A stretch of 60,198 bases of DNA from a phage: the NCBI GenBank assembly GCA_018175315.1, contig GCA_018175315.1_4769.1, one strand, 5' to 3'. Made by a program: the position numbers and the translations under genes. Under the pieces are notes generated by a model. That model had not been told where the DNA came from. It saw only the letters and a program-made list of their open reading frames with translations, and ran no database searches. The stretch's first letter is position 1. Each line of letters opens with the position of its first letter. Below are positions 17,247 to 55,507 of the stretch, piece after piece.

Positions 17247-19013
17247 TTATGGAAGATCTGCAGTCTGTGAATTGTTTAGATTAGAAATGAGTTCTTTTAG
17301 TTTCTTATTATCTTCTTCCAAAGATTCAATCCGTTTTATAAGTTCTTGCACCACATGCATCGTATCCAAAAGCATAGGTGTTGTGTCAAGTTCCTTTTGT
17401 TCAACAATCTCTCCTGGATTACTGCCAACATATTTACGCGTCTTAACATATAAAGGCTCAACAACCTCTGCTTGCTGTGCAATCACGCCATGCCGAACTC
17501 GATTTTGTTCGTCATTGTCATAAATGAACTCTACAAATTCCAGACCTTGGATATTAGAGTATGACTTTTCAACTCCAACAGGGGCGATGCCGTGTTTTAC
17601 ACGTGAGTCAGAAGTACCATTTTTTGTATAACTAAAGTTCCCGTAATCAGTTGAACAATTTATTTGCCCATCAATGTCAAAAAAGTAACGGCAGAATTTT
17701 CCAGCGTCTCCACCGATAACTACACAGGCTTTGCCAAATGCGTTATTACCTGGAATATACATGTGATATCCAACCTTTGTTGGATATCCATTAGGTCTGA
17801 TGCCGCCGATAGAATAGCCGCGCACCAGCGTATCTGATCCACTCTCGATTGCCACCCTGTCCATTCCGTTAGTGGTCAAGTTAGGCCCGTCGGCATCCGT
17901 TATCCCGTTCCACGTACCAATAGGCGTATACATGCGGAATGGGTTGACCTTCCCTGACTGTCGAAAGTCTACCGTACCATCATCATAAAACTTGTAGGAG
18001 TGTTTAGCGGAGCCTTCAGATTCTATAACAGCCGCAGTATAAGAACCCCAGGTAGTATCAGAGTATAGACGAGCAAACCGCTTACCTGCTGGGTTGGAGT
18101 ATTCCGATACTACTTTACCACCACGAACGGAGGTATTCTGCGGAGGTGTGCTACTATCTGCATTCTTAACACTCCACGAGGTATTCGCAGCTACGAACCC
18201 ACCAGAAGCACGAATTACCCACACACCGACAAAGTTTCGTGTAAGAATCTCATCTGTTGATGCTCCGTAAATTTGACTTGAACGTGAGGCGTCAAAATTT
18301 AGCGTGTTACAACGGCCAGTAAGCGGTGTCTTACCTGCGGGGATGACATCCCCATCCCCGTTAGGAAAAAGCATATTATCAGAAAAGAATGCACCTCTAG
18401 CAGCAGAACCGAATACCTGAGCATACGTACCTCCTGAGTAACTAGGAACAGCACCAGTAATATTAGGTGCAGCAGATTCAAATAGCTGACCATTTGCATT
18501 ACTATTCCCGCCATCACCACGACCATAAAGAGCGCGTATTGATCCCTCCTGCACCCCATTCTTGTCTGGAACACGAAAAGTTGTTGTTCCATTTCCTGAT
18601 GAGTATTTACCACGCTGGAATTTATCAGCTAACCAAACTGAATCATCTATAGCCCCAACCATTTGTGCATACGCCCAGAGTTCAGGCCAATCCGCTCGAT
18701 TCAATAACTGTCCATCAGAAACGACTTCATACGGTTGAATATATGCACGACTGTCGCGTAAGTGGAAGTCACCAACACCATAATTCATGACGCCATTCAT
18801 AGTGGGTCCAACTATACCAGTATTAATCTTATTTTCTACCCAACGTTTGGTTGCAGCATCATAGTCCATAACAGGATCCCCAGCAAGCGGAGTAGATCCA
18901 ATAGGTCGCACGTTTAACCACGCTGCTGCGCGGTCCGCTAAGTCGCTCAGGTTTGCACTCTTTTTAAGAGAGTTCTTGATGTCAGCCGGAATATTTGTTA
19001 CTTGCTTAGTCAT
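17247..19013 (-). CDS. tail fibre protein with C-terminal intramolecular-chaperone-like domain
   Basis: GGGAG RBS before ATG 19013; Gly/Ser/Asn-rich beta-type composition; C-terminal SDSRVKHG resembles the S-D-x-R-x-K self-cleavage site of fibre chaperone domains, followed by coiled-coil tail. Confidence 0.65.
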   Translation of the reverse strand: MTKQVTNIPADIKNSLKKSANLSDLADRAAAWLNVRPIGSTPLAGDPVMDYDAATKRWVENKINTGIVGPTMNGVMNYGVGDFHLRDSRAYIQPYEVVSDGQLLNRADWPELWAYAQMVGAIDDSVWLADKFQRGKYSSGNGTTTFRVPDKNGVQEGSIRALYGRGDGGNSNANGQLFESAAPNITGAVPSYSGGTYAQVFGSAARGAFFSDNMLFPNGDGDVIPAGKTPLTGRCNTLNFDASRSSQIYGASTDEILTRNFVGVWVIRASGGFVAANTSWSVKNADSSTPPQNTSVRGGKVVSEYSNPAGKRFARLYSDTTWGSYTAAVIESEGSAKHSYKFYDDGTVDFRQSGKVNPFRMYTPIGTWNGITDADGPNLTTNGMDRVAIESGSDTLVRGYSIGGIRPNGYPTKVGYHMYIPGNNAFGKACVVIGGDAGKFCRYFFDIDGQINCSTDYGNFSYTKNGTSDSRVKHGIAPVGVEKSYSNIQGLEFVEFIYDNDEQNRVRHGVIAQQAEVVEPLYVKTRKYVGSNPGEIVEQKELDTTPMLLDTMHVVQELIKRIESLEEDNKKLKELISNLNNSQTADLP

Positions 19014-19015
19014 AA

Positions 19016-19291
19016 TTACGCCCACTCCCTTAAAGGTTGCTCAAGAATAACACTGTGGTTACTGTACTGGGTAAAATCAAACGAGTCATCAATAACCCTT
19101 ACGTTCACATAATACCCTTCATTTTGAATATATGTTGGTTCGTCTGATAAACTTTCAACTTCTGTAAAGGTGTATCCTATTACATCAAGCATTATTTGGT
19201 TTTGCAAAGTTTCATTGCCTTCCCAATCAATGACCACAAGAAAATCTTCAAACGCCTTCTTGTCCTTAAATTTCATAGTTAAGTCTTTCAT
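19016..19291 (-). CDS. hypothetical protein between tail-fibre genes (possible fibre assembly factor)
   Basis: 91 aa with GGAG RBS; start overlaps upstream stop. Confidence 0.45.
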   Translation of the reverse strand: MKDLTMKFKDKKAFEDFLVVIDWEGNETLQNQIMLDVIGYTFTEVESLSDEPTYIQNEGYYVNVRVIDDSFDFTQYSNHSVILEQPLREWA

Positions 19292-40353: not shown

Positions 40354-40659
40354 CTATTTAGGCTGAATATAATTGCTTGATCCTACAAAATCAAGCGAAA
40401 CATTTTCAGCTTCATAGCGTATGATTTCCTTAACCCTCAGTTTACATTCAGTCAGAGCTGTTTCTGTATCCTGCAAACGTTGGATAATGTCCCTTGTATA
40501 AACCAAAGGATATTTATCAACTTCCCGACATTCTACCAACAGATGGGCCGGAAGTTTTATCTTCACTATCTGCGGCGGTGGTGGAGGTTGTATCTCCGTC
40601 GAGCAGCCTGCGCAAATCATCAGGAACACGCTCATTAAGATAAGCTTTGACGTCGGCAT
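40354..40659 (-). CDS. o-spanin (Rz1-like outer-membrane lipoprotein)
   Basis: GGAG RBS; signal/lipobox-like LMICAGCS followed by Pro-rich PPPPPQ; gene starts inside the i-spanin gene in another frame. Confidence 0.7.
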   Translation of the reverse strand: MPTSKLILMSVFLMICAGCSTEIQPPPPPQIVKIKLPAHLLVECREVDKYPLVYTRDIIQRLQDTETALTECKLRVKEIIRYEAENVSLDFVGSSNYIQPK

Positions 40660-40993
40660 TGCTTTTCTCCAGTGCTTTTAATTTGTCCTGAAGCAACCTG
40701 TGGTTATGTTGCTCACTTTCAATCGCTGAAGCCAATTTTCGATAGGATTCAGTATCCTTCTCCCGTTGGGATGCAAGAAATACAACAGCTTCGCCCAGCT
40801 TTGCATTGTCCCGTTCTACAACGGTTAGCCTTTGCTCAGCATGATTTAAATTAGTTTTGCTGAGCTCGTTCTGTGACCACAAGTATGCAGACACCCCACA
40901 TAAAAACACAACCGCGCCGATCATCAAATACTCGATAAACAGACGCGGTTTAGTTTTTATAAAACCGAAGAAGTTATTTAGAATCGTTTTCAT
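40517..40993 (-). CDS. i-spanin (Rz-like inner-membrane protein)
   Basis: N-terminal transmembrane segment then coiled coil; overlapped by the o-spanin gene. Confidence 0.7.
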   Translation of the reverse strand: MKTILNNFFGFIKTKPRLFIEYLMIGAVVFLCGVSAYLWSQNELSKTNLNHAEQRLTVVERDNAKLGEAVVFLASQREKDTESYRKLASAIESEQHNHRLLQDKLKALEKSNADVKAYLNERVPDDLRRLLDGDTTSTTAADSEDKTSGPSVGRMSGS

Positions 40994-41318
40994 GTTTGCA
41001 GTCCCCTGAATCGAGTTTGATCCCTGTCCGTGAAGCTATAAGCGACGTTAGGGCTTTTAGCGTAGCACGTGAACCTGCCCAAGCAAATAGGCCAGCAAGG
41101 CCAAAAGCGAACCAAAGGCTGATGTTAAACTCCCTGTAGATCGCATACATTATAACGCCAAAGAAAGCGGCAGATAAGCCTTCAAGAAATGCAATGCTTG
41201 CCCGTACTTTCTTACCAGCGTCTATTGTACGCATGACATAACCGAGAGCTCCCCCAATGAGAGAGATAAACGCAAACCCCGCTAGAACTGCCCAATGTTC
41301 GTTGGGTGAATTGAACAT
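40974..41318 (-). CDS. holin (putative)
   Basis: 114 aa with 3 hydrophobic segments and charged C-terminus; adjacent to spanins. Confidence 0.55.
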   Translation of the reverse strand: MFNSPNEHWAVLAGFAFISLIGGALGYVMRTIDAGKKVRASIAFLEGLSAAFFGVIMYAIYREFNISLWFAFGLAGLFAWAGSRATLKALTSLIASRTGIKLDSGDCKHENDSK

Positions 41319-41354
41319 GTTCCCTCCAAATAAAAGGGGCTAACGCCCCGTCAG

Positions 41355-41792
41355 TTAAAGTACCATTGCAATAGCGCGGTTAATTACGTCGTCGGTATAG
41401 GGCATCATGCCATTTTCATGACGAATGATTGCTTTCACCAATCCTGACATAATTGCCTTGTCGAAGACATTAATTGGATCGTTAGGTTGAACACCAATTG
41501 CTTTGGCAACAGAGCGAATATACGCTTCCGTATCGTTTTCGTTAGGCGGAGCCCAGCGAGCGATAATTTCACGTACAGTGTCGATGTTTTTCTTACCCAC
41601 ATTGGGCAAGCCTTCACGTTTGGTGTAGTTTGTCAGGATTTTCGCTAGTGCACGAATGCCGTAAATCGGTTGCGTAAATTGAGCAAAAGATTTATCGGTT
41701 CTCTTATCAGCAGGAACTAAGCCCTGCCAATTATCACCCCAGCGAATATTGCCTGGATTGTTATTACGAATACCACGAGGTTGAAGTGCCAT
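41355..41792 (-). CDS. putative endolysin (by lysis-cassette position)
   Basis: GGAGGAGG RBS before ATG 41792 (ORF track's longer ORF lacks an RBS); motif RGIRNNNPGNIRWG; immediately upstream of holin. Confidence 0.4.
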   Translation of the reverse strand: MALQPRGIRNNNPGNIRWGDNWQGLVPADKRTDKSFAQFTQPIYGIRALAKILTNYTKREGLPNVGKKNIDTVREIIARWAPPNENDTEAYIRSVAKAIGVQPNDPINVFDKAIMSGLVKAIIRHENGMMPYTDDVINRAIAMVL

Positions 41793-41877
41793 GCTTAAAG
41801 CCTCCTCCGCTTGACATGAACATATGAAGGGTAGCAGAGAAGGCTGATACGGCGCAAGGAGAATTGATCTAAGGAGA

Positions 41878-42138
41878 TTACCCGTCAAACCAGTCGTTAA
41901 TGTAGAAAGCAACAAGACTTTTTCCACCTTTATCGACCCCGTAGCTGGAGTAAAAAGTGAAGTTATCTGGTTCGTGTTGCAGGATAACCATAAAGTCATG
42001 CTGAGCGCTGTCAATAATTGCAATGGCGATTTCCTCGTTATCTGTGATAAAGATTTCGCCACCAATTACAACATGCGTCCCGTGGTCAACTACCTTACTA
42101 TGATAAGCAGGTGGGATCAGGTGACTGAATGTAGTCAT
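41878..42138 (-). CDS. hypothetical protein
   Basis: 86 aa, GAGGG RBS. Confidence 0.45.
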   Translation of the reverse strand: MTTFSHLIPPAYHSKVVDHGTHVVIGGEIFITDNEEIAIAIIDSAQHDFMVILQHEPDNFTFYSSYGVDKGGKSLVAFYINDWFDG

Positions 42139-46324: not shown

Positions 46325-46416
46325 AGCACTTTTGGCCTATTCAATATCACGATGCATCGCTATTATGTACCCATAGCAACACGATACTACTTCTTAACCA
46401 CACTTGGAGGCGCGTT

Positions 46417-46584
46417 ATGTCCAGCTCATACTTCACTATCATGTACTTCGGTCGCAGTTATTGCATCGACAACAAATACCGCCACCTTACCCGCGCTCAG
46501 CTGGAGTGGGCAATCAGCTTATATAAGCAGGAAGAATTTTATTTCCTTGAAGTCGCACTGGATTATGTAAGCGAAAATAGTTGA
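46417..46584 (+). CDS. small hypothetical protein (55 aa)
   Basis: GGAGG RBS 6 nt before ATG; below the 60-aa cutoff of the ORF track. Confidence 0.4.
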   Translation: MSSSYFTIMYFGRSYCIDNKYRHLTRAQLEWAISLYKQEEFYFLEVALDYVSENS

Positions 46585-46974: not shown

Positions 46975-47586
46975 ATGTCTAAAGTAACTCACCGCGAACA
47001 GGACAAAATGCGTTACACCATGAAAACGAATGCACGCCGCGCCCTTAAGACCCGTTGGGGCCAGGTTGCACGCGATGCACACGAGCAGTTAATCCATCAG
47101 GACGAGATCGGTTTTTACATCGTCGAGAAGGAAGTCCTTCAGGTACTGCGCGACCATAAAAAAGCGCAACAACCGGAGCAGAAAGTCCCGGCACCAACCG
47201 CCGCGCCAGCTGCCAGCGTCTCGGTACTGCGCCCGATGGTAAATCCGGAAATCGTCAAAAGCTGCCTCGAAGCTTTGGAGCAGGAGGAAGAGAAAGATAT
47301 GAAACACGCAAAAGCTGCCACGCAGGTTTCTGAAATCAAAATTGAAGAGCCAAAAGCTGCCGCGCCAAAACAGGATGCAAAAGCTGCTCGCTGTGATTTC
47401 AAAAATGGCGCTCGCAAGCCTCTGAAAGGAAAAACTGCCGAAGTGTGGGCAATGGGCGACAAACTTTTAGCCGAACTGGGCCGCACGCCGGAGCTGAAAG
47501 AGATGAAAGCTGCAATGCCTTCTTACAACGGGACAACGGTTGCCATTCAGTTCTACGCTTGGAGAACTTATCATGGACTTAAATAA
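46975..47586 (+). CDS. hypothetical protein
   Basis: AAAGGAG RBS before ATG 46975; 203 aa, charged and Ala/Pro-rich. Confidence 0.55.
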   Translation: MSKVTHREQDKMRYTMKTNARRALKTRWGQVARDAHEQLIHQDEIGFYIVEKEVLQVLRDHKKAQQPEQKVPAPTAAPAASVSVLRPMVNPEIVKSCLEALEQEEEKDMKHAKAATQVSEIKIEEPKAAAPKQDAKAARCDFKNGARKPLKGKTAEVWAMGDKLLAELGRTPELKEMKAAMPSYNGTTVAIQFYAWRTYHGLK

Positions 47587-48055
47587 TATCTTCAGCTATC
47601 AAAACGGAGAATTATTTTGGAAAATAAGACCAGCTAAACAGATTTCTATCGGTAGTAAAGCTGGTGCACCAAATAAGCGCGGATACATCCTGATAGGATA
47701 CAAGGGAAAACTATATCGTCGTTCAAGGTTAGTATGGGAGTTGCATAAAGGCCCGATACCGGAAGGACATCAAATAGACCATATTAACCATTGTACATGG
47801 GACGACCGCATAGAGAATTTGCGCTTAGTGTTGCCAAGCGATAATAGTAAAAATCTTAGCAGGGCAATAAATAACTCTACCGGAGTAACAGGAGTTTACT
47901 TTAATAAAAAGGCATGTAAATTTCAGGCTTACATTCAAATAAACGGATTGAAAAAGTATCTAGGTTTATATGATACTATAGAGGACGCAAAACAGGCCCG
48001 TAAACAAGCGGAAGAGCATTACAAATTTCACGCCAACCACGGACTGGACGCATGA
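47573..48055 (+). CDS. HNH homing endonuclease with AP2-type DNA-binding domain
   Basis: HNH core (GYKGKLYRRSRLVWELHKG ... IDHINHCTWDDRIENLRLV) and AP2-like segment (VTGVYFNKKACKFQAYIQINGLKKYLGLYDTIEDAKQA); GGAG RBS. Confidence 0.7.
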   Translation: MDLNNIFSYQNGELFWKIRPAKQISIGSKAGAPNKRGYILIGYKGKLYRRSRLVWELHKGPIPEGHQIDHINHCTWDDRIENLRLVLPSDNSKNLSRAINNSTGVTGVYFNKKACKFQAYIQINGLKKYLGLYDTIEDAKQARKQAEEHYKFHANHGLDA

Positions 48056-50031: not shown

Positions 50032-52368
50032 ATGGAACTGTTTCCCGCTGAAATTAAAGCTTTCCCACAATGGGCGGTCGCCGATGCGGATAAAAAGCCG
50101 CTCGTATGGGATAACGATATTGGACGTTTGATGGCGGCGGACGTTACCGATCCGGATATGCTTATGACGTTTGAAGCTGCCAAAGGTTGCGCTGCTCATT
50201 TCAATAAACCTTATATTGGATTTGTGCTTACTGCCCAAGACCCGTTCACCTGCATCGATCTGGATGTGAAGAATGCAACCAATGAACCAGACCCCAAGAA
50301 GCACACGACGCCGGAACAGTTGCGCCGCTTCGAACAGATCATGACTGCGTTCGATACTTACACCGAAGTGAGTCGCTCAGGCTTGGGTGTTCACCTGTGG
50401 TTAAGAGGTAACATCGGTAAAGGTCGTCGACGTGATGGTGTCGAGGTTTATAGTCAGGAGCGTTTTATTATCTGCACGGGCAATCCCGTCTACAACAAAC
50501 CAGTTGCAGAACGTGATCATTACCTTACTATGCTTGTGAATGAAATTGATCTTCAGCGCAAGACATATGAAATTGAACTGGTAGAAAAAGATCCGGTAGA
50601 AGATGATGCAACTATTCATCAGCGTGCGCTTGAAGCAGATAACGGCGATAAGTATGCACGGTTATTTAACGGTGAATGGGTTGAAATGGGATTCCCCTCC
50701 CAGTCTGAAGCAGACCTTGCCCTTATTTCCATGTATGCATTCTACACGGAAAGTAATGAGCAATGTCGTCGTCTGTTTCGTTATAGTGCACTGGGAAAAC
50801 GTGAGAAGGCTAATAAGAACAATGTTCATATTGACCGTTGCTTGCGTATGTGTCGAGGTCGCATGGAGCGTGAGCGCATTGCCCAGGAAAACGTAGCGGC
50901 GCTGGCGCGGGATTACGCTGCCCGTATGCAAGCTGCACACAGCACAATGCAGCAGGTAGCGGAAATGCCTGTAACCACAGTCAGCCCGTCTGGTGAAATA
51001 GTAGTTGCAGAAAGTACGTCCATTGATGCAACCGCTATTGAGTGGCCTCCGGGGCTTGCTGGGGAGCTTGCGAAGTACATCTACAAAGCATCGCAACGTC
51101 CCGTGAAAGAAATTGCAATCACCGCATCGTTAGCATTTCTGTCTGGTGTGTGCGGTAAAGTATGGAATACTATCACCAACACAGGGCTGAACGGTTATTT
51201 TGTGCTTATTGCTCGATCTGGTGTGGGTAAAGAGATGCTTCACGCCGGACCCAGCTATATTTGCAAGCAAGTAGGGGAGCAATTACCGCAAGTTCATGAA
51301 TTTGTAGACATGACTAACTATGCGTCCGGTCCTGCATTGCGTAAAAGTTTTGCGGATCATAGTTCGTTTGTGAACATTAACGGAGAGTTTGGCAAAACCA
51401 TCAAAGGTATGGCAACAGCTCAGCCCGGTACTGCAAACTATACTCTGAAGCAAACTATCACAGATGTATATCAAAAATCTGGCGCAATGGATGTTGTTGG
51501 CGGTATTGGATATTCTGATAAGGCTAATAATACCAAAACAATGGAAGGGGTGGCGTTCAGCGTGCTGGGAGAAACAACACCGGACACGTTCTTTGAAGCA
51601 TTAACCCGTGAAATGATGGAAGACGGTTTCTTGTCCCGTTTCCACATTGTGCAATATGAAGGAGATCGAGTTCCTGCAAACGAAAACCCTGAGATTATAA
51701 TGCCCCAGCAGTTGAAGGACATGGTGTGCCATCTTGTTAACCACACCTTAGTAACAATGGCGAAGTTTCAAACGGTCACAGTTCAGTTAAGTCCTGAAGC
51801 TGAAAGGATTGAACGGGAGTTTAACCTGTTATGTGACGAACACATTAACGCAACCAAAGACGAAGCTATCCGTCAGCCGTGGAACCGTGCGCACCTTAAA
51901 GCTCTGCGCCTTGCGTCCCTGCTAGCGGTAGGGGAAAACTGGATCAACCCTGTCGTTCAGCCAAATCACATGCAATGGGCGGTAGATTTTGTTACGCATG
52001 GACAGGACATCATGATCAACGCATGGGAAAAAGGTACTATTGGCGGTGATGATGAAACGCGCGTGAAGGCTATTTGCCAGGTCTGCAAAGACTATCTTGG
52101 CGGTAAGATTGCATGTGATCGTAAGGAGCTGCGCGTTGACGGTATCATCCCGAAGGCAACTATCACACGCAGGACATACGGTCTGGCAGCATTCAAGAAC
52201 CACCGGATGGGGGCAGGTACTGCGACAGACCTGACTATCAAACAACTTGTAGACATGGGCGCGCTCGTTCCAGTCACGCGTGAAGATGCGTTGAAGCGTA
52301 ATTTCAGGGGATTGGGTTGGTATATAGACGAGTCCATTGAGAGTGTTTTCAAGGACTTAAGCAAATAA
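50032..52368 (+). CDS. DNA primase (prim-pol/AEP-type N-terminus with C-terminal ATPase/helicase-like region)
   Basis: AEP motifs FTCIDLDVKN (DxD) and SRSGLGVHLWL (SxH); Walker A-like ARSGVGKE; 778 aa. Confidence 0.65.
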   Translation: MELFPAEIKAFPQWAVADADKKPLVWDNDIGRLMAADVTDPDMLMTFEAAKGCAAHFNKPYIGFVLTAQDPFTCIDLDVKNATNEPDPKKHTTPEQLRRFEQIMTAFDTYTEVSRSGLGVHLWLRGNIGKGRRRDGVEVYSQERFIICTGNPVYNKPVAERDHYLTMLVNEIDLQRKTYEIELVEKDPVEDDATIHQRALEADNGDKYARLFNGEWVEMGFPSQSEADLALISMYAFYTESNEQCRRLFRYSALGKREKANKNNVHIDRCLRMCRGRMERERIAQENVAALARDYAARMQAAHSTMQQVAEMPVTTVSPSGEIVVAESTSIDATAIEWPPGLAGELAKYIYKASQRPVKEIAITASLAFLSGVCGKVWNTITNTGLNGYFVLIARSGVGKEMLHAGPSYICKQVGEQLPQVHEFVDMTNYASGPALRKSFADHSSFVNINGEFGKTIKGMATAQPGTANYTLKQTITDVYQKSGAMDVVGGIGYSDKANNTKTMEGVAFSVLGETTPDTFFEALTREMMEDGFLSRFHIVQYEGDRVPANENPEIIMPQQLKDMVCHLVNHTLVTMAKFQTVTVQLSPEAERIEREFNLLCDEHINATKDEAIRQPWNRAHLKALRLASLLAVGENWINPVVQPNHMQWAVDFVTHGQDIMINAWEKGTIGGDDETRVKAICQVCKDYLGGKIACDRKELRVDGIIPKATITRRTYGLAAFKNHRMGAGTATDLTIKQLVDMGALVPVTREDALKRNFRGLGWYIDESIESVFKDLSK

Positions 52369-52619: not shown

Positions 52620-52777
52620 TTTGTAATCCTCCGTTCTGTTTATGAGTTAATAGTACAGCTAGACGGATCAAAGGTAAAGGCAAATCGTGCTATTTTATAG
52701 ATGCATTTCAAGTCTAAAGTTGTTGCATACATCGCAAGTCCTGCTATACTTACAGCATAAAGTTAACGGAGGGAACA

Positions 52778-52852
52778 ATGTTCGAGCTTTTAAAATTATT
52801 TGCGGGTGCTATTTTCGTAGCTGGTTATTTTTGGTTTATGTACATTCTGTGA
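52778..52852 (+). CDS. candidate 24-aa hydrophobic peptide (MFELLKLFAGAIFVAGYFWFMYIL)
   Basis: GGAGGGAA RBS 3 nt before ATG; single predicted transmembrane helix; stop overlaps RBS of next gene. Confidence 0.35.
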   Translation: MFELLKLFAGAIFVAGYFWFMYIL

Positions 52853-52860
52853 GGTATAAA

Positions 52861-53118
52861 ATGAACATTGAAGATTTTCCTGTGTGGCCTGCCTTCATAC
52901 CGCCTCAGTCTACTACTGGGTCTTATTTTAGAATTGGGTTTGTCATAGAGTATCAATTAAATCTTTTGTCATATTTAAGAAAAGAATTAGACAAACTGAA
53001 TATTAATAATATTGGTCAATTGCGAAAAAGGCTCAAAATTAAACGGCGTATCACGGAATTAGATAAGGTTGTTACACAACTTCTTAGATACCAGAGAGTA
53101 GTTAATTTTAAGTTGTAA
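52861..53118 (+). CDS. hypothetical protein
   Basis: GAGG RBS before ATG 52861 (ORF track's longer ORF begins upstream). Confidence 0.45.
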   Translation: MNIEDFPVWPAFIPPQSTTGSYFRIGFVIEYQLNLLSYLRKELDKLNINNIGQLRKRLKIKRRITELDKVVTQLLRYQRVVNFKL

Positions 53119-53137
53119 CTTTTGTGAGGGTGATAAG

Positions 53138-53464
53138 ATGACCAATAACGTTCTAAGATTATTTGCTTACGGTCTGGCAAGTAAATTTGGCTTTGGTGAT
53201 GGTGATATTCTCGAATATTTTTGTGAAGACAATGATATTGATTTACAAGGACGAGATGAACATGACGTTTTAATTAAGCTGGTAAGAACTTATCTTTTAC
53301 CTCTTATTCCTCATGTTCAAGTGTATGAAATTGGATCGCTTCATAATCCAATCCGCTGTGAGGATGAGTTTATAAAAGAGCTTGAGCAGAGCGAGATTTA
53401 CGTTGATGTAAGTATTGATCAACTTGTACAATGTATTAACGAAACAGAAAAGGCGGACTGGTGA
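53138..53464 (+). CDS. hypothetical protein
   Basis: 108-aa acidic ORF with GAGGG RBS. Confidence 0.5.
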   Translation: MTNNVLRLFAYGLASKFGFGDGDILEYFCEDNDIDLQGRDEHDVLIKLVRTYLLPLIPHVQVYEIGSLHNPIRCEDEFIKELEQSEIYVDVSIDQLVQCINETEKADW

Positions 53465-53778
53465 TGGGAATTGTAAATACTATCTGTGAAGCAATTTATG
53501 CGGAGCTTATCCGTATTGAAACTAATCTGCATAAAGAAGGACGAAAAGAAATCAAAAGAATTCTTGTAGACTTCCCGACAGCAATGGATATTCGAAGAGA
53601 TGGGCATTTATACTATTGGGGTAATGAATACATCGATGAATGTGACGGAGGGCATTGTATCCACATGGCTATTATGAATTACCCTATTGTTCCAACAGAT
53701 CAAGTAACGGGTTTTGAGTTGATGTTAAATGATGGTACTTTAGCACCAAAAGCGGCAAAGGGAACCGCGCAAAATTGA
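53461..53778 (+). CDS. hypothetical protein
   Basis: 105 aa, ATGA overlap with upstream gene. Confidence 0.5.
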   Translation: MMGIVNTICEAIYAELIRIETNLHKEGRKEIKRILVDFPTAMDIRRDGHLYYWGNEYIDECDGGHCIHMAIMNYPIVPTDQVTGFELMLNDGTLAPKAAKGTAQN

Positions 53779-54090
53779 AGCTTGCCATTCAAGACTGCAT
53801 CCTTTAAGATAACCACAGTTAACGAGGTTTAACAATTTAACAACATTAACTTAGTGAACGATGCTTAACTCAAGCCCTTGAAAGCGGTAGCTGTACCTCC
53901 TTACAGCAACTACTTTCGCTGGGCTTCCTGGAGCGGACAGGGTAAACCCGCAACTTACTGAACGATGTGAACGATGTTTAACGCGACGGCGCCAGATGTA
54001 CCAAACCGTCACCAGCCTTTGGCGAGGCTGTACAAGTAGGCCAGGATAGACGAAGACGGCAGTCAAAGTAAGCTATCCGACAATCAAGAG

Positions 54091-54122
54091 AGCCCAGGAA
54101 TCCTTATGCCTGGGCTTTTTTG
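54091..54122 (+). terminator. rho-independent terminator
   Basis: AGCCCAGG ... CCTGGGCT followed by TTTTTT. Confidence 0.65.
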
Positions 54123-54195
54123 TTCCTTGCGATCAACATAACTTCAATATAAAATTCTTTATGAAGTGTTTTACATTAAAGTTATGGAGACAAAC

Positions 54196-54663
54196 ATGGC
54201 AGTAAATATTCGCGCTAAAGGTCAACGCGGTGAGCGGGAAGTATGTGATTTCTTTAATGCAATTTATGCCGAAATTTACGCAGAGCTGGGGATGCAGTTA
54301 CCGGAAAAACCTATTGCTCAGCGTAACCAGAATCAAAGTGCGGTCGGTGGTTGCGACATTAGCAATACATGCCACCATGCGGTTGAAGTAAAAAACCACG
54401 CTACGCCACAAGTAAACACATGGTGGAAGCAGACTGTCCAATCTGCTAAAGAGCTTGGCAGATATCCAGTTCTGATGTATAAAATAGAACGTAAAGGATG
54501 GAAGGTCGTTCTACCGCTTAATCCGGTTGTCTTCAGTAATGGGGAATGGCAGTGGTATGAAGTTAAAGATTCCATCCGCGCGGAAATTAGTCTTAATGAC
54601 TACCGCATTATTTTTAAAGCGCACGCGAAACAATGGTTAATTGATCGCGGCTCAATCCAATAA
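54196..54663 (+). CDS. PD-(D/E)XK-type nuclease (possible Holliday-junction resolvase)
   Basis: GGAG RBS before ATG 54196; GQRGEREV then GGCDIS...HAVEVKN gives a D...E-x-K arrangement. Confidence 0.45.
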   Translation: MAVNIRAKGQRGEREVCDFFNAIYAEIYAELGMQLPEKPIAQRNQNQSAVGGCDISNTCHHAVEVKNHATPQVNTWWKQTVQSAKELGRYPVLMYKIERKGWKVVLPLNPVVFSNGEWQWYEVKDSIRAEISLNDYRIIFKAHAKQWLIDRGSIQ

Positions 54664-54672
54664 GGTGAAATT

Positions 54673-55329
54673 ATGACTGACGTATTAAATAACATGCACA
54701 CTATTTCTATAACTAATTCTAGCGTAACTGCTGCATCCTTTGCACCAACTCTTCTCGGGGTGAAACGCTTAACGGACACCGCAATCCTGCCATCGTTTGC
54801 CAGTGCGGGGGCAGCTTGCTTTGACCTGCACGCGGACCTTAAAAGTGAAGAAGGTTGCGAACAAATCATTTTCTCTTACGAGCACATATTCCGCACAGGG
54901 TTAGCGTTTGATATTCCTGAAGGTTACGCGCTTATGGTGTATTCCCGTAGCGGACACGGATTCAAAAACGACGTGCGTCTGGCAAACTGCGTGGGCGTCA
55001 TTGATAGCGACTACACTGGGGAACTTAAGGTTAAGATTACTATTGATAACGATGGTAGTTTTACTGTCAATCATGGTGATCGCATTGCGCAAGCTATGCT
55101 TATTAAGCTGCCCAGCGTGCAACTGGTAGAAGTGGACGAGCTTAAGAGCACTGAGCGCGGTGCCAATGGCTTTGGGTCCACTGGCACGGGCGAACTTAAA
55201 AAGGGTAACGGCAAAGGGTGGAAACTTGGAGACGAGCAGTCCAACAACTTTGTACCTGCCACCAATGTGGTTACATCTGAGGAAGAAGTGTCTTTGCATC
55301 CAATTATGACTTCCCGCTATTTGAAATAG
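54673..55329 (+). CDS. dut: dUTP diphosphatase (dUTPase)
   Basis: Canonical dUTPase motifs: AGAACFDL, RSGHGFKNDVRLANCVGVIDSDYTGEL, GDRIAQ, RGANGFGSTG. Confidence 0.85.
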   Translation: MTDVLNNMHTISITNSSVTAASFAPTLLGVKRLTDTAILPSFASAGAACFDLHADLKSEEGCEQIIFSYEHIFRTGLAFDIPEGYALMVYSRSGHGFKNDVRLANCVGVIDSDYTGELKVKITIDNDGSFTVNHGDRIAQAMLIKLPSVQLVEVDELKSTERGANGFGSTGTGELKKGNGKGWKLGDEQSNNFVPATNVVTSEEEVSLHPIMTSRYLK

Positions 55330-55336
55330 GCTATTT

Positions 55337-55507
55337 ATGGGTAAACGGAAGAAAAAGTTATCAAAGCAAGTAATATCTGACATGGAACCCTATATACCTT
55401 GTCCGATACCTGAAGCGTATAAGCCTTCACCATTAATGGAGGATGCTGAATGGAGGAAGGTTGCTAGATTACTAATCCGTTTAAAAAGATTAATTGATAC
55501 AAATTGA
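55337..55507 (+). CDS. candidate small basic protein (56 aa)
   Basis: ORF read by hand (MGKRKKKLSKQ...); weak RBS; below ORF-track cutoff. Confidence 0.25.
   Translation: MGKRKKKLSKQVISDMEPYIPCPIPEAYKPSPLMEDAEWRKVARLLIRLKRLIDTN

Follow-up and report, generated by a model that had tools for sequence, protein, structure and literature searches.

Are the shortest open reading frames (ORFs) of a phage genome, those that fall below the cut-off of a gene display, real genes, and what might a product of only 24 residues do? Here the question is asked of the window, meaning the whole stretch of DNA analysed (60,198 nucleotides, nt; contig GCA_018175315.1_4769.1 of NCBI GenBank assembly GCA_018175315.1), which is a complete genome of about 60 kb of a Seuratvirus (Queuovirinae), a CAjan/Seurat-like siphophage of E. 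coli. An initial annotation had drawn attention to three short ORFs, and all three were recovered with the positions, lengths and sequences given there. They are named ORF24 (52778-52852, plus strand), ORF55 (46417-46584, plus strand) and ORF56 (55337-55507, plus strand). Comparative analysis indicates that ORF24 is a well-supported, nearly unannotated gene for a predicted membrane microprotein of 24 amino acids (aa). ORF55 and ORF56 are members of already known families and hold nothing new beyond the fact that a display cut-off of 60 aa hid real genes. Overall, we consider it likely that all three are genuine, translated accessory genes of Seuratvirus, with the ORF24 microprotein as part of this explanation.

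Sequence and conservation of ORF24

The elements of ORF24 and its immediate surroundings are as follows.

52723-52750, plus strand: putative sigma-70 promoter of the rightward operon, read from the sequence, with TTGCAT (52723-52728), a 16-nt spacer and the extended -10 element TGcTATACT (52742-52750)
52768-52773, plus strand: Shine-Dalgarno (SD) element GGAGGG of ORF24, with 5 nt from GGAGG to the ATG
52778-52852, plus strand: ORF24, 24 codons from ATG (52778) to TGA (52850-52852), encoding MFELLKLFAGAIFVAGYFWFMYIL, a predicted single-pass membrane microprotein
52851-52863, plus strand: junction of ORF24 with the next cistron, in which GAGG (52851-52854) overlaps the stop codon TGA and lies 6 nt before the ATG at 52861

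The first line of evidence for ORF24 is its ribosome binding site. The start codon is preceded by GGAGGGAA at 52768-52775, and in all relatives GGAG or GAGG is kept at an unchanged distance. In the whole 60-kb genome, GGAGG followed by 4-8 nt and ATG occurs 16 times on both strands; 12 of these sites begin ORFs of at least 60 aa and three begin ORFs of 20-59 aa, two of the latter being ORF24 and ORF55. Since the full GGAGG is rare in this genome and mostly stands at real starts, the SD evidence for ORF24 and ORF55 is well above chance. The third such site, a perfect GGAGG with 5 nt to the ATG, begins a 41-aa ORF at 18424 on the minus strand, which lies out of frame within a 592-aa minus-strand ORF (17247-19025) and may be either a chance occurrence or an overlapping gene.

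Upstream, ORF24 is the first plus-strand cistron after a conserved, promoter-like extended -10 motif, close to the primase and to genes of DNA metabolism. The predicted transcript would start near 52757, leaving a predicted 5' untranslated region of about 20 nt. The motif TGnTATA(A/C)T is retained in Salmonella phage STP-SP5 (TGCTATAAT) and in Hafnia phage yong3 (TGTATAAT), despite the diverged, indel-bearing intergenic DNA around it.

The second and main line of evidence is conservation of the frame. The 3-kb stretch containing ORF24 was matched by 37 phage records in GenBank, 36 of them at 90-99% identity. The loci scanned for ORF24 were taken from GenBank, IMG/VR and 11 metagenome contigs, some contigs being present twice, and the 24-codon frame was intact in 32 of the 32 (21 distinct DNA sequences, 13 peptide variants); every Seuratvirus-type locus that was read had its SD element, start and stop in unchanged positions. 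The metagenome scan gave 116 matches, among which 11 were true ORF24 homologues, all of them Seuratvirus-like. SD element, ATG, 24 codons and stop were also kept in STP-SP5 (68% DNA identity; peptide MFEFVKIFASVIFIALYFWLMYWV) and in yong3 (73% over part of the region; peptide MSAFVNIFGGSIFVAVYFWVMYFL), where the upstream DNA carries indels. Nine residues were invariant (M1, F8, I12, F13, A15, Y17, F18, W19 and Y22). A more distant counterpart was found in Pantoea phage vB_PagS_Vid5, whose primase is 53% identical to that of the window: a syntenic, hydrophobic ORF of 24 codons (MGYILSLISSGLFAFAYFYIVWWL) with a GGGGGG SD element and a TAATG overlap with the next gene.

The pattern of substitutions is that of a coding sequence. 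In close relatives the variable sites of ORF24 are distributed 3:4:13 over the three codon positions (binomial P = 0.004), and 11:8:21 across all Seuratvirus-type sequences. Between the window and contig L004 seven synonymous changes and one non-synonymous change were counted, with proportions of 0.51 at synonymous sites (pS) and 0.02 at non-synonymous sites (pN); under neutrality, with about 20% of sites synonymous, at least seven synonymous changes out of eight would be expected with P of about 1e-4. Against STP-SP5 and yong3, pN was 0.23-0.25 and pS 0.44-0.84. Taken as substitution data, these results show purifying selection on the predicted peptide sequence, and we regard ORF24 as very probably a real protein-coding gene.

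Frame conservation in relatives had been named by the initial annotation as a check, and it was found for all three ORFs, a result that bears on the possibility that one or more of them arose as an open frame by chance or through an annotation artefact. Short ORFs are indeed plentiful by chance, 192 of 20-60 codons being present in 11.5 kb. Nevertheless, all three combine frame conservation with a ratio of non-synonymous to synonymous substitution rates (dN/dS) below 1, two have families in PHROGs, and ORF24 and ORF55 carry the full GGAGG at ideal spacing, a motif with only 16 occurrences genome-wide. On the minus strand, a 30-aa ORF (52640-52732) failed the same test, since its frame is lost in STP-SP5, yong3 and Vid5 and its changes in close relatives are mostly non-synonymous; it was rejected as a gene. 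An origin by chance is thus barely credible.

A conserved non-coding element would be another source of sequence constraint: the stretch might be a 5' leader or a DNA control region, for instance an operator of the divergent ORF65-like regulator described below, with the frame being incidental. Its position in a divergent promoter region beside a predicted DNA-binding protein fits such a role, as does the leader motif AGTTAACG(G)AGG, which recurs once, at the start of a candidate RNA at 53817. This motif is shared by ORF24 and the candidate RNA at only these two sites, and GTTAAC is not enriched genome-wide. However, third-position bias and synonymous excess are signatures of coding, and relatives with about 70% DNA identity retain start, stop and length, whereas their upstream intergenic DNA gains indels. 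Nor does RNA structure account for the conservation of ORF24, the fold of the region being ordinary (z = 0.41). No other frame stays open across all sequences of the region, the mostly open ones gaining stops in divergent relatives. Among these, a mechanically called ORF of 143 aa (52687-53118) covers ORF24 in another frame that contains stops in divergent relatives; it only prolongs the next gene, which truly starts at 52861, in the upstream direction. A purely non-coding explanation of ORF24 therefore appears very remote.

The homologues were grouped in a Seuratvirus ORF24 microprotein family (CSP1_063-like), defined in this analysis. Its members share a 24-codon ORF with an SD element, a place at the head of an operon divergent from an ORF65-like gene, and the motif IF[VI]A.YFW.xY. 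No homologue of ORF24 turned up in searches of PHROGs, Pfam, NCBIfam or PDB sequences, and degenerate DNA patterns of ORF24 retrieved from IMG/VR only the same three Seuratvirus contigs, together with chance matches that had internal stops.

Predicted properties of the ORF24 peptide

The initial annotation had described ORF24 as a hydrophobic peptide with a ribosome binding site, and both parts agree with the sequence: behind the SD element already described, 18 of the 24 residues form one unbroken hydrophobic and aromatic run after a short polar head, M-F-E-x-x-K. The run contains an aromatic cluster (Y17 F18 W19 x x Y22) and small residues at positions 9-11 and 15. On the Hessa scale, residues 7-24 sum to about -0.5 kcal/mol, and the variants range from -1.8 to +0.5. 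Insertion of the peptide into a membrane is judged probable. The earlier idea of small transmembrane peptides applies to ORF24 only, because ORF55 is a soluble mini-domain and ORF56 is basic and mostly disordered, neither of them being hydrophobic.

A role in lysis timing had also been proposed, that is, ORF24 might be a holin, an antiholin or a membrane-depolarising peptide. From what is generally known of holins and type I toxins, small hydrophobic peptides can depolarise membranes, which lends the proposal some plausibility. The location speaks otherwise: the genome has a complete lysis cassette of holin (phrog_785), endolysin and spanins at 40354-42065 on the opposite strand, within the late block and more than 10 kb away, and ORF24 lies within the replication and accessory region. 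Moreover, its peptide ends in ...FMYIL and has no charged C-terminal tail of the kind typical of holins. A lysis factor is consequently highly improbable, and this part of the earlier proposal lacks support.

Neighbourhood of ORF24 and the variable gene slot

The annotated neighbours of ORF24 are the primase, a small minus-strand gene, a row of small plus-strand genes, a RusA/PDDEXK-like nuclease, a dUTPase and a Gam-like protein. Three features next to ORF24 are of importance here, all of which have counterparts in the phage DruSM1.

52395-52619, minus strand: divergent gene of 74 aa, phrog_22269 by profile match and annotation, homologue of DruSM1 ORF65 and predicted to encode a DNA-binding protein
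52640-52732, minus strand: the rejected 30-aa ORF ('PH_ORF69' in DruSM1), annotated in WildeMaa, DruSM1, VogelGryff and KS_A3 in place of ORF24
52861-53118, plus strand: second cistron, 85 aa, phrog_16944, homologue of DruSM1 ORF64

Only 8 nt separate the stop of ORF24 from the next ATG, and the junction TGAGGTrTrArATG is conserved although at least six different genes come after ORF24 across phages. Downstream of it (52853-53120), the gene directly after ORF24 differs among genomes that are otherwise about 95% identical, with at least six different first codons and lengths from 195 to 555 nt. The boundary of recombination lies at the conserved stop/SD/ATG junction or in the last four codons of ORF24; in SA126VB and in one metagenome contig the gene swap reaches the last ORF24 codons, and the length is still 24 codons. 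A conserved junction followed by a changing gene means that the promoter-ORF24 unit borders a hyperplastic slot for accessory genes.

Such an arrangement could also mean that ORF24 is a leader ORF (an upstream ORF), of which only the act of translation matters, opening or loading the next gene by termination and reinitiation, with a peptide that has no function of its own. The overlap of its TGA with the SD element of the next gene, the 8-nt distance, the conservation of the junction in front of at least six different genes and the position of ORF24 at the extreme 5' end of the predicted transcript are what such a device would look like. Yet a coupling device needs no set peptide, and here seven synonymous changes stand against one non-synonymous change (pN 0.02 versus pS 0.51), nine residues never vary, and even Vid5 retains the hydrophobic character and the exact length. 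An attenuator leader peptide of the pheL or trpL type does not fit either: the 8 nt after the stop leave no room for alternative hairpins, the gap is too short for an attenuator or terminator, no terminator was found in it, and the RNA structure is not unusual (z = 0.41). Coupling and a functional peptide are compatible with each other. We consider a leader ORF without peptide function unlikely, and a secondary role of the ORF24 peptide gene in translational coupling to the next cistron likely.

A copy of this unit was observed outside the genus. The Salmonella phages SWJM-02 (OQ594353.1; 581-637 and 1085-1278) and SPJ41 (ON868915.1), both Felix O1-like myoviruses (Felixounavirus), carry a 194-nt piece of Seuratvirus DNA with promoter and ORF24, 94% identical and with an identical peptide, together with 57 nt from the 5' end of the ORF65-like gene. 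The ORF24 piece adjoins a homing endonuclease related to the window gene at 47540-48055. From these sequences, the ORF24 module looks like one that moved horizontally between unrelated phage families.

The knockout study of DruSM1 provides experimental information on the neighbours. Deletion of ORF64, designed so that the 3' end of ORF24 was kept intact, gave no phenotype, and deletion of ORF65, reported as SplA-like, made the phage sensitive to the defences hhe and Druantia I (Ojima et al., bioRxiv 10.1101/2024.04.14.589459). Deletion of 'PH_ORF69' had the same hhe/Druantia I phenotype as that of ORF65 (bioRxiv 10.1101/2024.04.14.589459). This last deletion removes roughly positions 52667-52729 of the window, the predicted -35 element included. 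The stretch 52640-52732 probably marks divergent promoters and not a gene, and the 'PH_ORF69' phenotype is most simply read as a promoter effect, by loss of the ORF65 promoter; it may also act through the ORF24 operon.

Mosaicism was observed upstream of this region as well. The C-terminal 299 aa of the primase (51469-52365) are of two types among Seuratviruses, the DruSM1/Greed/WildeMaa group being 99-100% identical to the window and the CAjan/KurtStettler/phiG7/SLUR26 group about 61%. The DNA flanking this region is about 95% identical between both groups, a sign of mosaic exchange within the primase gene.

Annotation of ORF24 in related genomes

ORF24 has been left out of 36 of 38 related GenBank genomes, and it is unannotated in Seurat, CAjan, SLUR76, WildeMaa, DruSM1, STP-SP5 and yong3. 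The only entries found for it in GenBank records and in a collection of 15 billion proteins were CSP1_063 and Vid5_ORF59. The former, from Cronobacter phage CSP1, is annotated at 24 aa (UniRef100_A0AB33CJ70), with 21 of 24 residues identical to the window. The latter is annotated at 44 aa from an upstream TTG, and its last 24 codons are the distant homologue of ORF24. The TTG start is probably an artefact of a minimum-length rule, as the GGGGGG SD element precedes the internal ATG that gives 24 aa. CSP1_063 is an orthologue and Vid5_ORF59 a syntenic distant homologue, but both are bare calls of a 'hypothetical protein' that came without analysis.

Gene callers systematically lose small hydrophobic proteins, and ORF24 provides a clean and testable case of a conserved phage membrane peptide of 24 aa. 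It heads an operon beside the counter-defence-linked locus of DruSM1, a phage with a working genome-rebooting knockout system. The practical gain is a corrected annotation of the genus and a defined candidate for functional work on small proteins.

ORF55 and ORF56

The claim that a 60-aa threshold had missed real genes held in so far as all three ORFs appear genuine; many GenBank relatives, however, already list ORF55 and ORF56 as genes, and both belong to PHROG families. Their features are as follows.

46406-46410, plus strand: SD element GGAGG of ORF55, 6 nt before the ATG
46417-46584, plus strand: ORF55, 55 aa, phrog_18706, first gene of the rightward block after the divergent region at 45.1-46.4 kb
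55337-55507, plus strand: ORF56, 56 aa, basic, equal to CAjan gp57, phrog_17117, from ATG (55337) to TGA (55505-55507)

The GGAGG ribosome binding site that had been ascribed to ORF55 is present, as listed. ORF55 matches phrog_18706 with E = 3.5e-14 (residues 1-52 against profile positions 1-52 of 54), and it was found in 8 Seuratvirus and 17 Nonagvirus records, the Nonagvirus proteins being about 50% identical. In a broad protein search only two clusters appeared, all from the same phage group. Its dN/dS is about 0.4, and the AlphaFold model (predicted local distance difference test, 93) shows a compact, soluble fold of a beta-hairpin and two helices. A fold search with this model matched no PDB structure, the only structural neighbour being the homologue in JenK1 (template modelling score 0.89). 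In DruSM1 the gene is annotated as NGRRMQZB_81, at 98% identity, and the primer for the 'ORF74' deletion carries ACACTTGGAGGCGCGTTATG, the SD-to-ATG stretch of ORF55 (46400-46419 in the window). Under laboratory conditions ORF55 is dispensable. Between the window and yong3 (1004-1165) the ORF55 proteins are 89-90% identical and the synonymous rate dS is only 0.18, in genomes far more diverged elsewhere; this sequence comparison suggests a recent exchange of ORF55.

ORF56 had been described as basic, and with 13 K/R against 7 D/E (net charge about +6) it is. The ribosome binding site ascribed to all three ORFs, sound for ORF24 and ORF55, is not supported for ORF56: it begins 7 nt past the stop of the dUTPase gene, and its sole SD-like element is a weak AGG (55328-55330) overlapping that stop. 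It is residue-for-residue identical to CAjan gp57 and matches phrog_17117 with E = 9.8e-29 (residues 1-56 against profile positions 1-52 of 58). By tblastn it was present in 24 phage records, annotated in CAjan, the SLUR phages, WildeMaa and others, and a broad protein search returned only four clusters, all from the same phage group. The STP-SP5 protein is 79% identical (dN 0.12, dS 0.41; dN/dS about 0.3). ORF56 is absent from DruSM1 and from about a third of the relatives, a patchy presence that makes it an accessory gene. In its AlphaFold model the N-terminal half has low confidence and a single helix (36-55) is confident; as the model is mostly disordered, it was not used for a fold search. 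The product would be a soluble, basic protein whose N-terminal half is disordered and whose C-terminal helix is amphipathic, and its translation is probably coupled to that of the dUTPase gene. The dUTPase ORF itself (54673-55329, 218 aa) has an N-terminal extension of 24 residues relative to the STP-SP5 protein. Annotated lengths in relatives span 195-218 aa, and translation may really begin at an internal codon.

A candidate non-coding RNA downstream of ORF24

A second conserved element was observed in the gap at 53779-54195 (417 nt), which is 98-100% identical in 29 Seuratvirus records, above the flanking genes, and 79% identical in STP-SP5.

53782-54121, plus strand: candidate non-coding RNA of about 300 nt, between a 105-aa gene and the PDDEXK/RusA-like gene
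53782-53810, plus strand: promoter-like site of the candidate RNA, from the promoter scan
53985-53989/54006-54010, 54013-54019/54024-54030, 54044-54049/54073-54078 and 54055-54057/54062-54064, plus strand: core helices of the candidate RNA
54092-54098/54109-54115, plus strand: stem of an intrinsic terminator, followed by a T-run, ending the GC-rich core

The gap contains the repeats TTAAC (five times) and GAACGATG (three times). A five-helix structure drawn by hand was 96.6% paired over eight distinct sequences; compensatory changes affected both partners of eight pairs, among them a GC/GU/AU series, and slid controls gave at most two such pairs. In DruSM1-type genomes, where an HNH gene comes next, the 3' domain is a variant one in which the helices are kept and the sequence is different. 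Rfam gave no match, and a covariance model found no copy in the loci searched of Vid5, PSTCR4, PaMx25, JenP1, R7M and SWJM-02. PSTCR4 has an analogous unannotated gap with a common 12-mer, AACTTAGTGAAC. In DruSM1, deletion of 'PH_ORF65', which removes the invariant RNA core, was viable (Ojima et al., bioRxiv 10.1101/2024.04.14.589459), and this viability speaks for an accessory non-coding RNA rather than an essential replication origin.

Proposed role of ORF24

Together, the data allow a mechanism to be proposed. Host RNA polymerase would transcribe ORF24 from the extended -10 promoter, ahead of the late genes. The peptide would enter the inner membrane as a helix, single-pass or tail-anchored, and might act through helix-helix contacts, either with itself or with a host membrane protein, in host takeover, exclusion or counter-defence and not in lysis. 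Ribosomes terminating at the ORF24 stop could help to load the variable next gene. ORF55 and ORF56 would be soluble accessory proteins, most likely binders of a host or phage macromolecule. That ORF24 modulates host membrane proteins, as the initial annotation had suggested for such peptides, is a reasonable inference, and any specific role is assigned tentatively at most. It would be a long shot that ORF24 has a host-directed early role in the membrane (blocking a membrane-acting abortive-infection effector, superinfection exclusion, or modulation of a transporter or respiratory complex), that part of the 'PH_ORF69' sensitivity to Druantia I and hhe runs via its operon, and that promoter and ORF24 form a portable expression head for the accessory slot, copied into Felix O1-like Salmonella phages.

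Several points weigh against these conclusions. Support for translation and membrane insertion of all three ORFs is computational and not direct. ORF24 has only 24 codons, its family is phylogenetically narrow (Seuratvirus and Vid5) and the counts are small. No comparable ORF stands at the syntenic site in JenP1 (Nonagvirus), PSTCR4, PaMx25 or R7M, and in DruSM1 ORF24 carries L4P, so the N-terminal head tolerates change. The putative promoter of the ORF24 operon is a prediction only; its -35 element is weak and the consensus promoter scan did not pick it up. The 'PH_ORF69' deletion, which takes out this -35 element, was viable, and the knockout library never targeted ORF24 (bioRxiv 10.1101/2024.04.14.589459). 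Deletion of DruSM1 ORF74, the ORF55 homologue, was viable too and left the phage unchanged against the defence library (Ojima et al., bioRxiv 10.1101/2024.04.14.589459).

Comparison with known systems

ORF55 is a member of PHROG 18706, together with p35 of phage 9g and DruSM1 ORF74, and ORF56 is a member of PHROG 17117, together with CAjan gp57; nothing differs in either case, and both are families of hypothetical proteins.

For ORF24, the nearest parallels in size are the type I toxins of enterobacteria, which are small and hydrophobic (IbsC, 19 aa; ShoB, 26 aa; DinQ, 27 aa; TisB, 29 aa). ORF24 resembles them in size, in its single hydrophobic helix and in its likely location in the inner membrane. 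It matched no curated type I toxin family (Ibs, ShoB, Ldr, TisB, Hok) in NCBIfam, Pfam or PHROG. Type I toxins are tightly repressed, stand-alone genes, whereas ORF24 is the first cistron of a phage operon; the promoter scan gave no minus-strand promoter-like site in or just downstream of ORF24, the nearest being at 53185-53158, and no overlapping antisense RNA gene is evident.

A second group, of small regulatory proteins of the inner membrane, comprises MgtS (31 aa), KdpF (29 aa), PmrR (29 aa), AcrZ (49 aa) and MgrB (47 aa), single-pass proteins that bind a larger membrane protein. A patch of small residues on a helix is typical of helix packing, and the patch of ORF24 at positions 9-11 and 15 fits such packing. 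ORF24 has no homology to these proteins and is encoded by a phage. Finally, Stp of phage T4 (26 aa) is a precedent for phage peptides of about 25 residues with specific host targets, defence systems included. Stp is soluble and polar, unlike the hydrophobic peptide predicted for ORF24.

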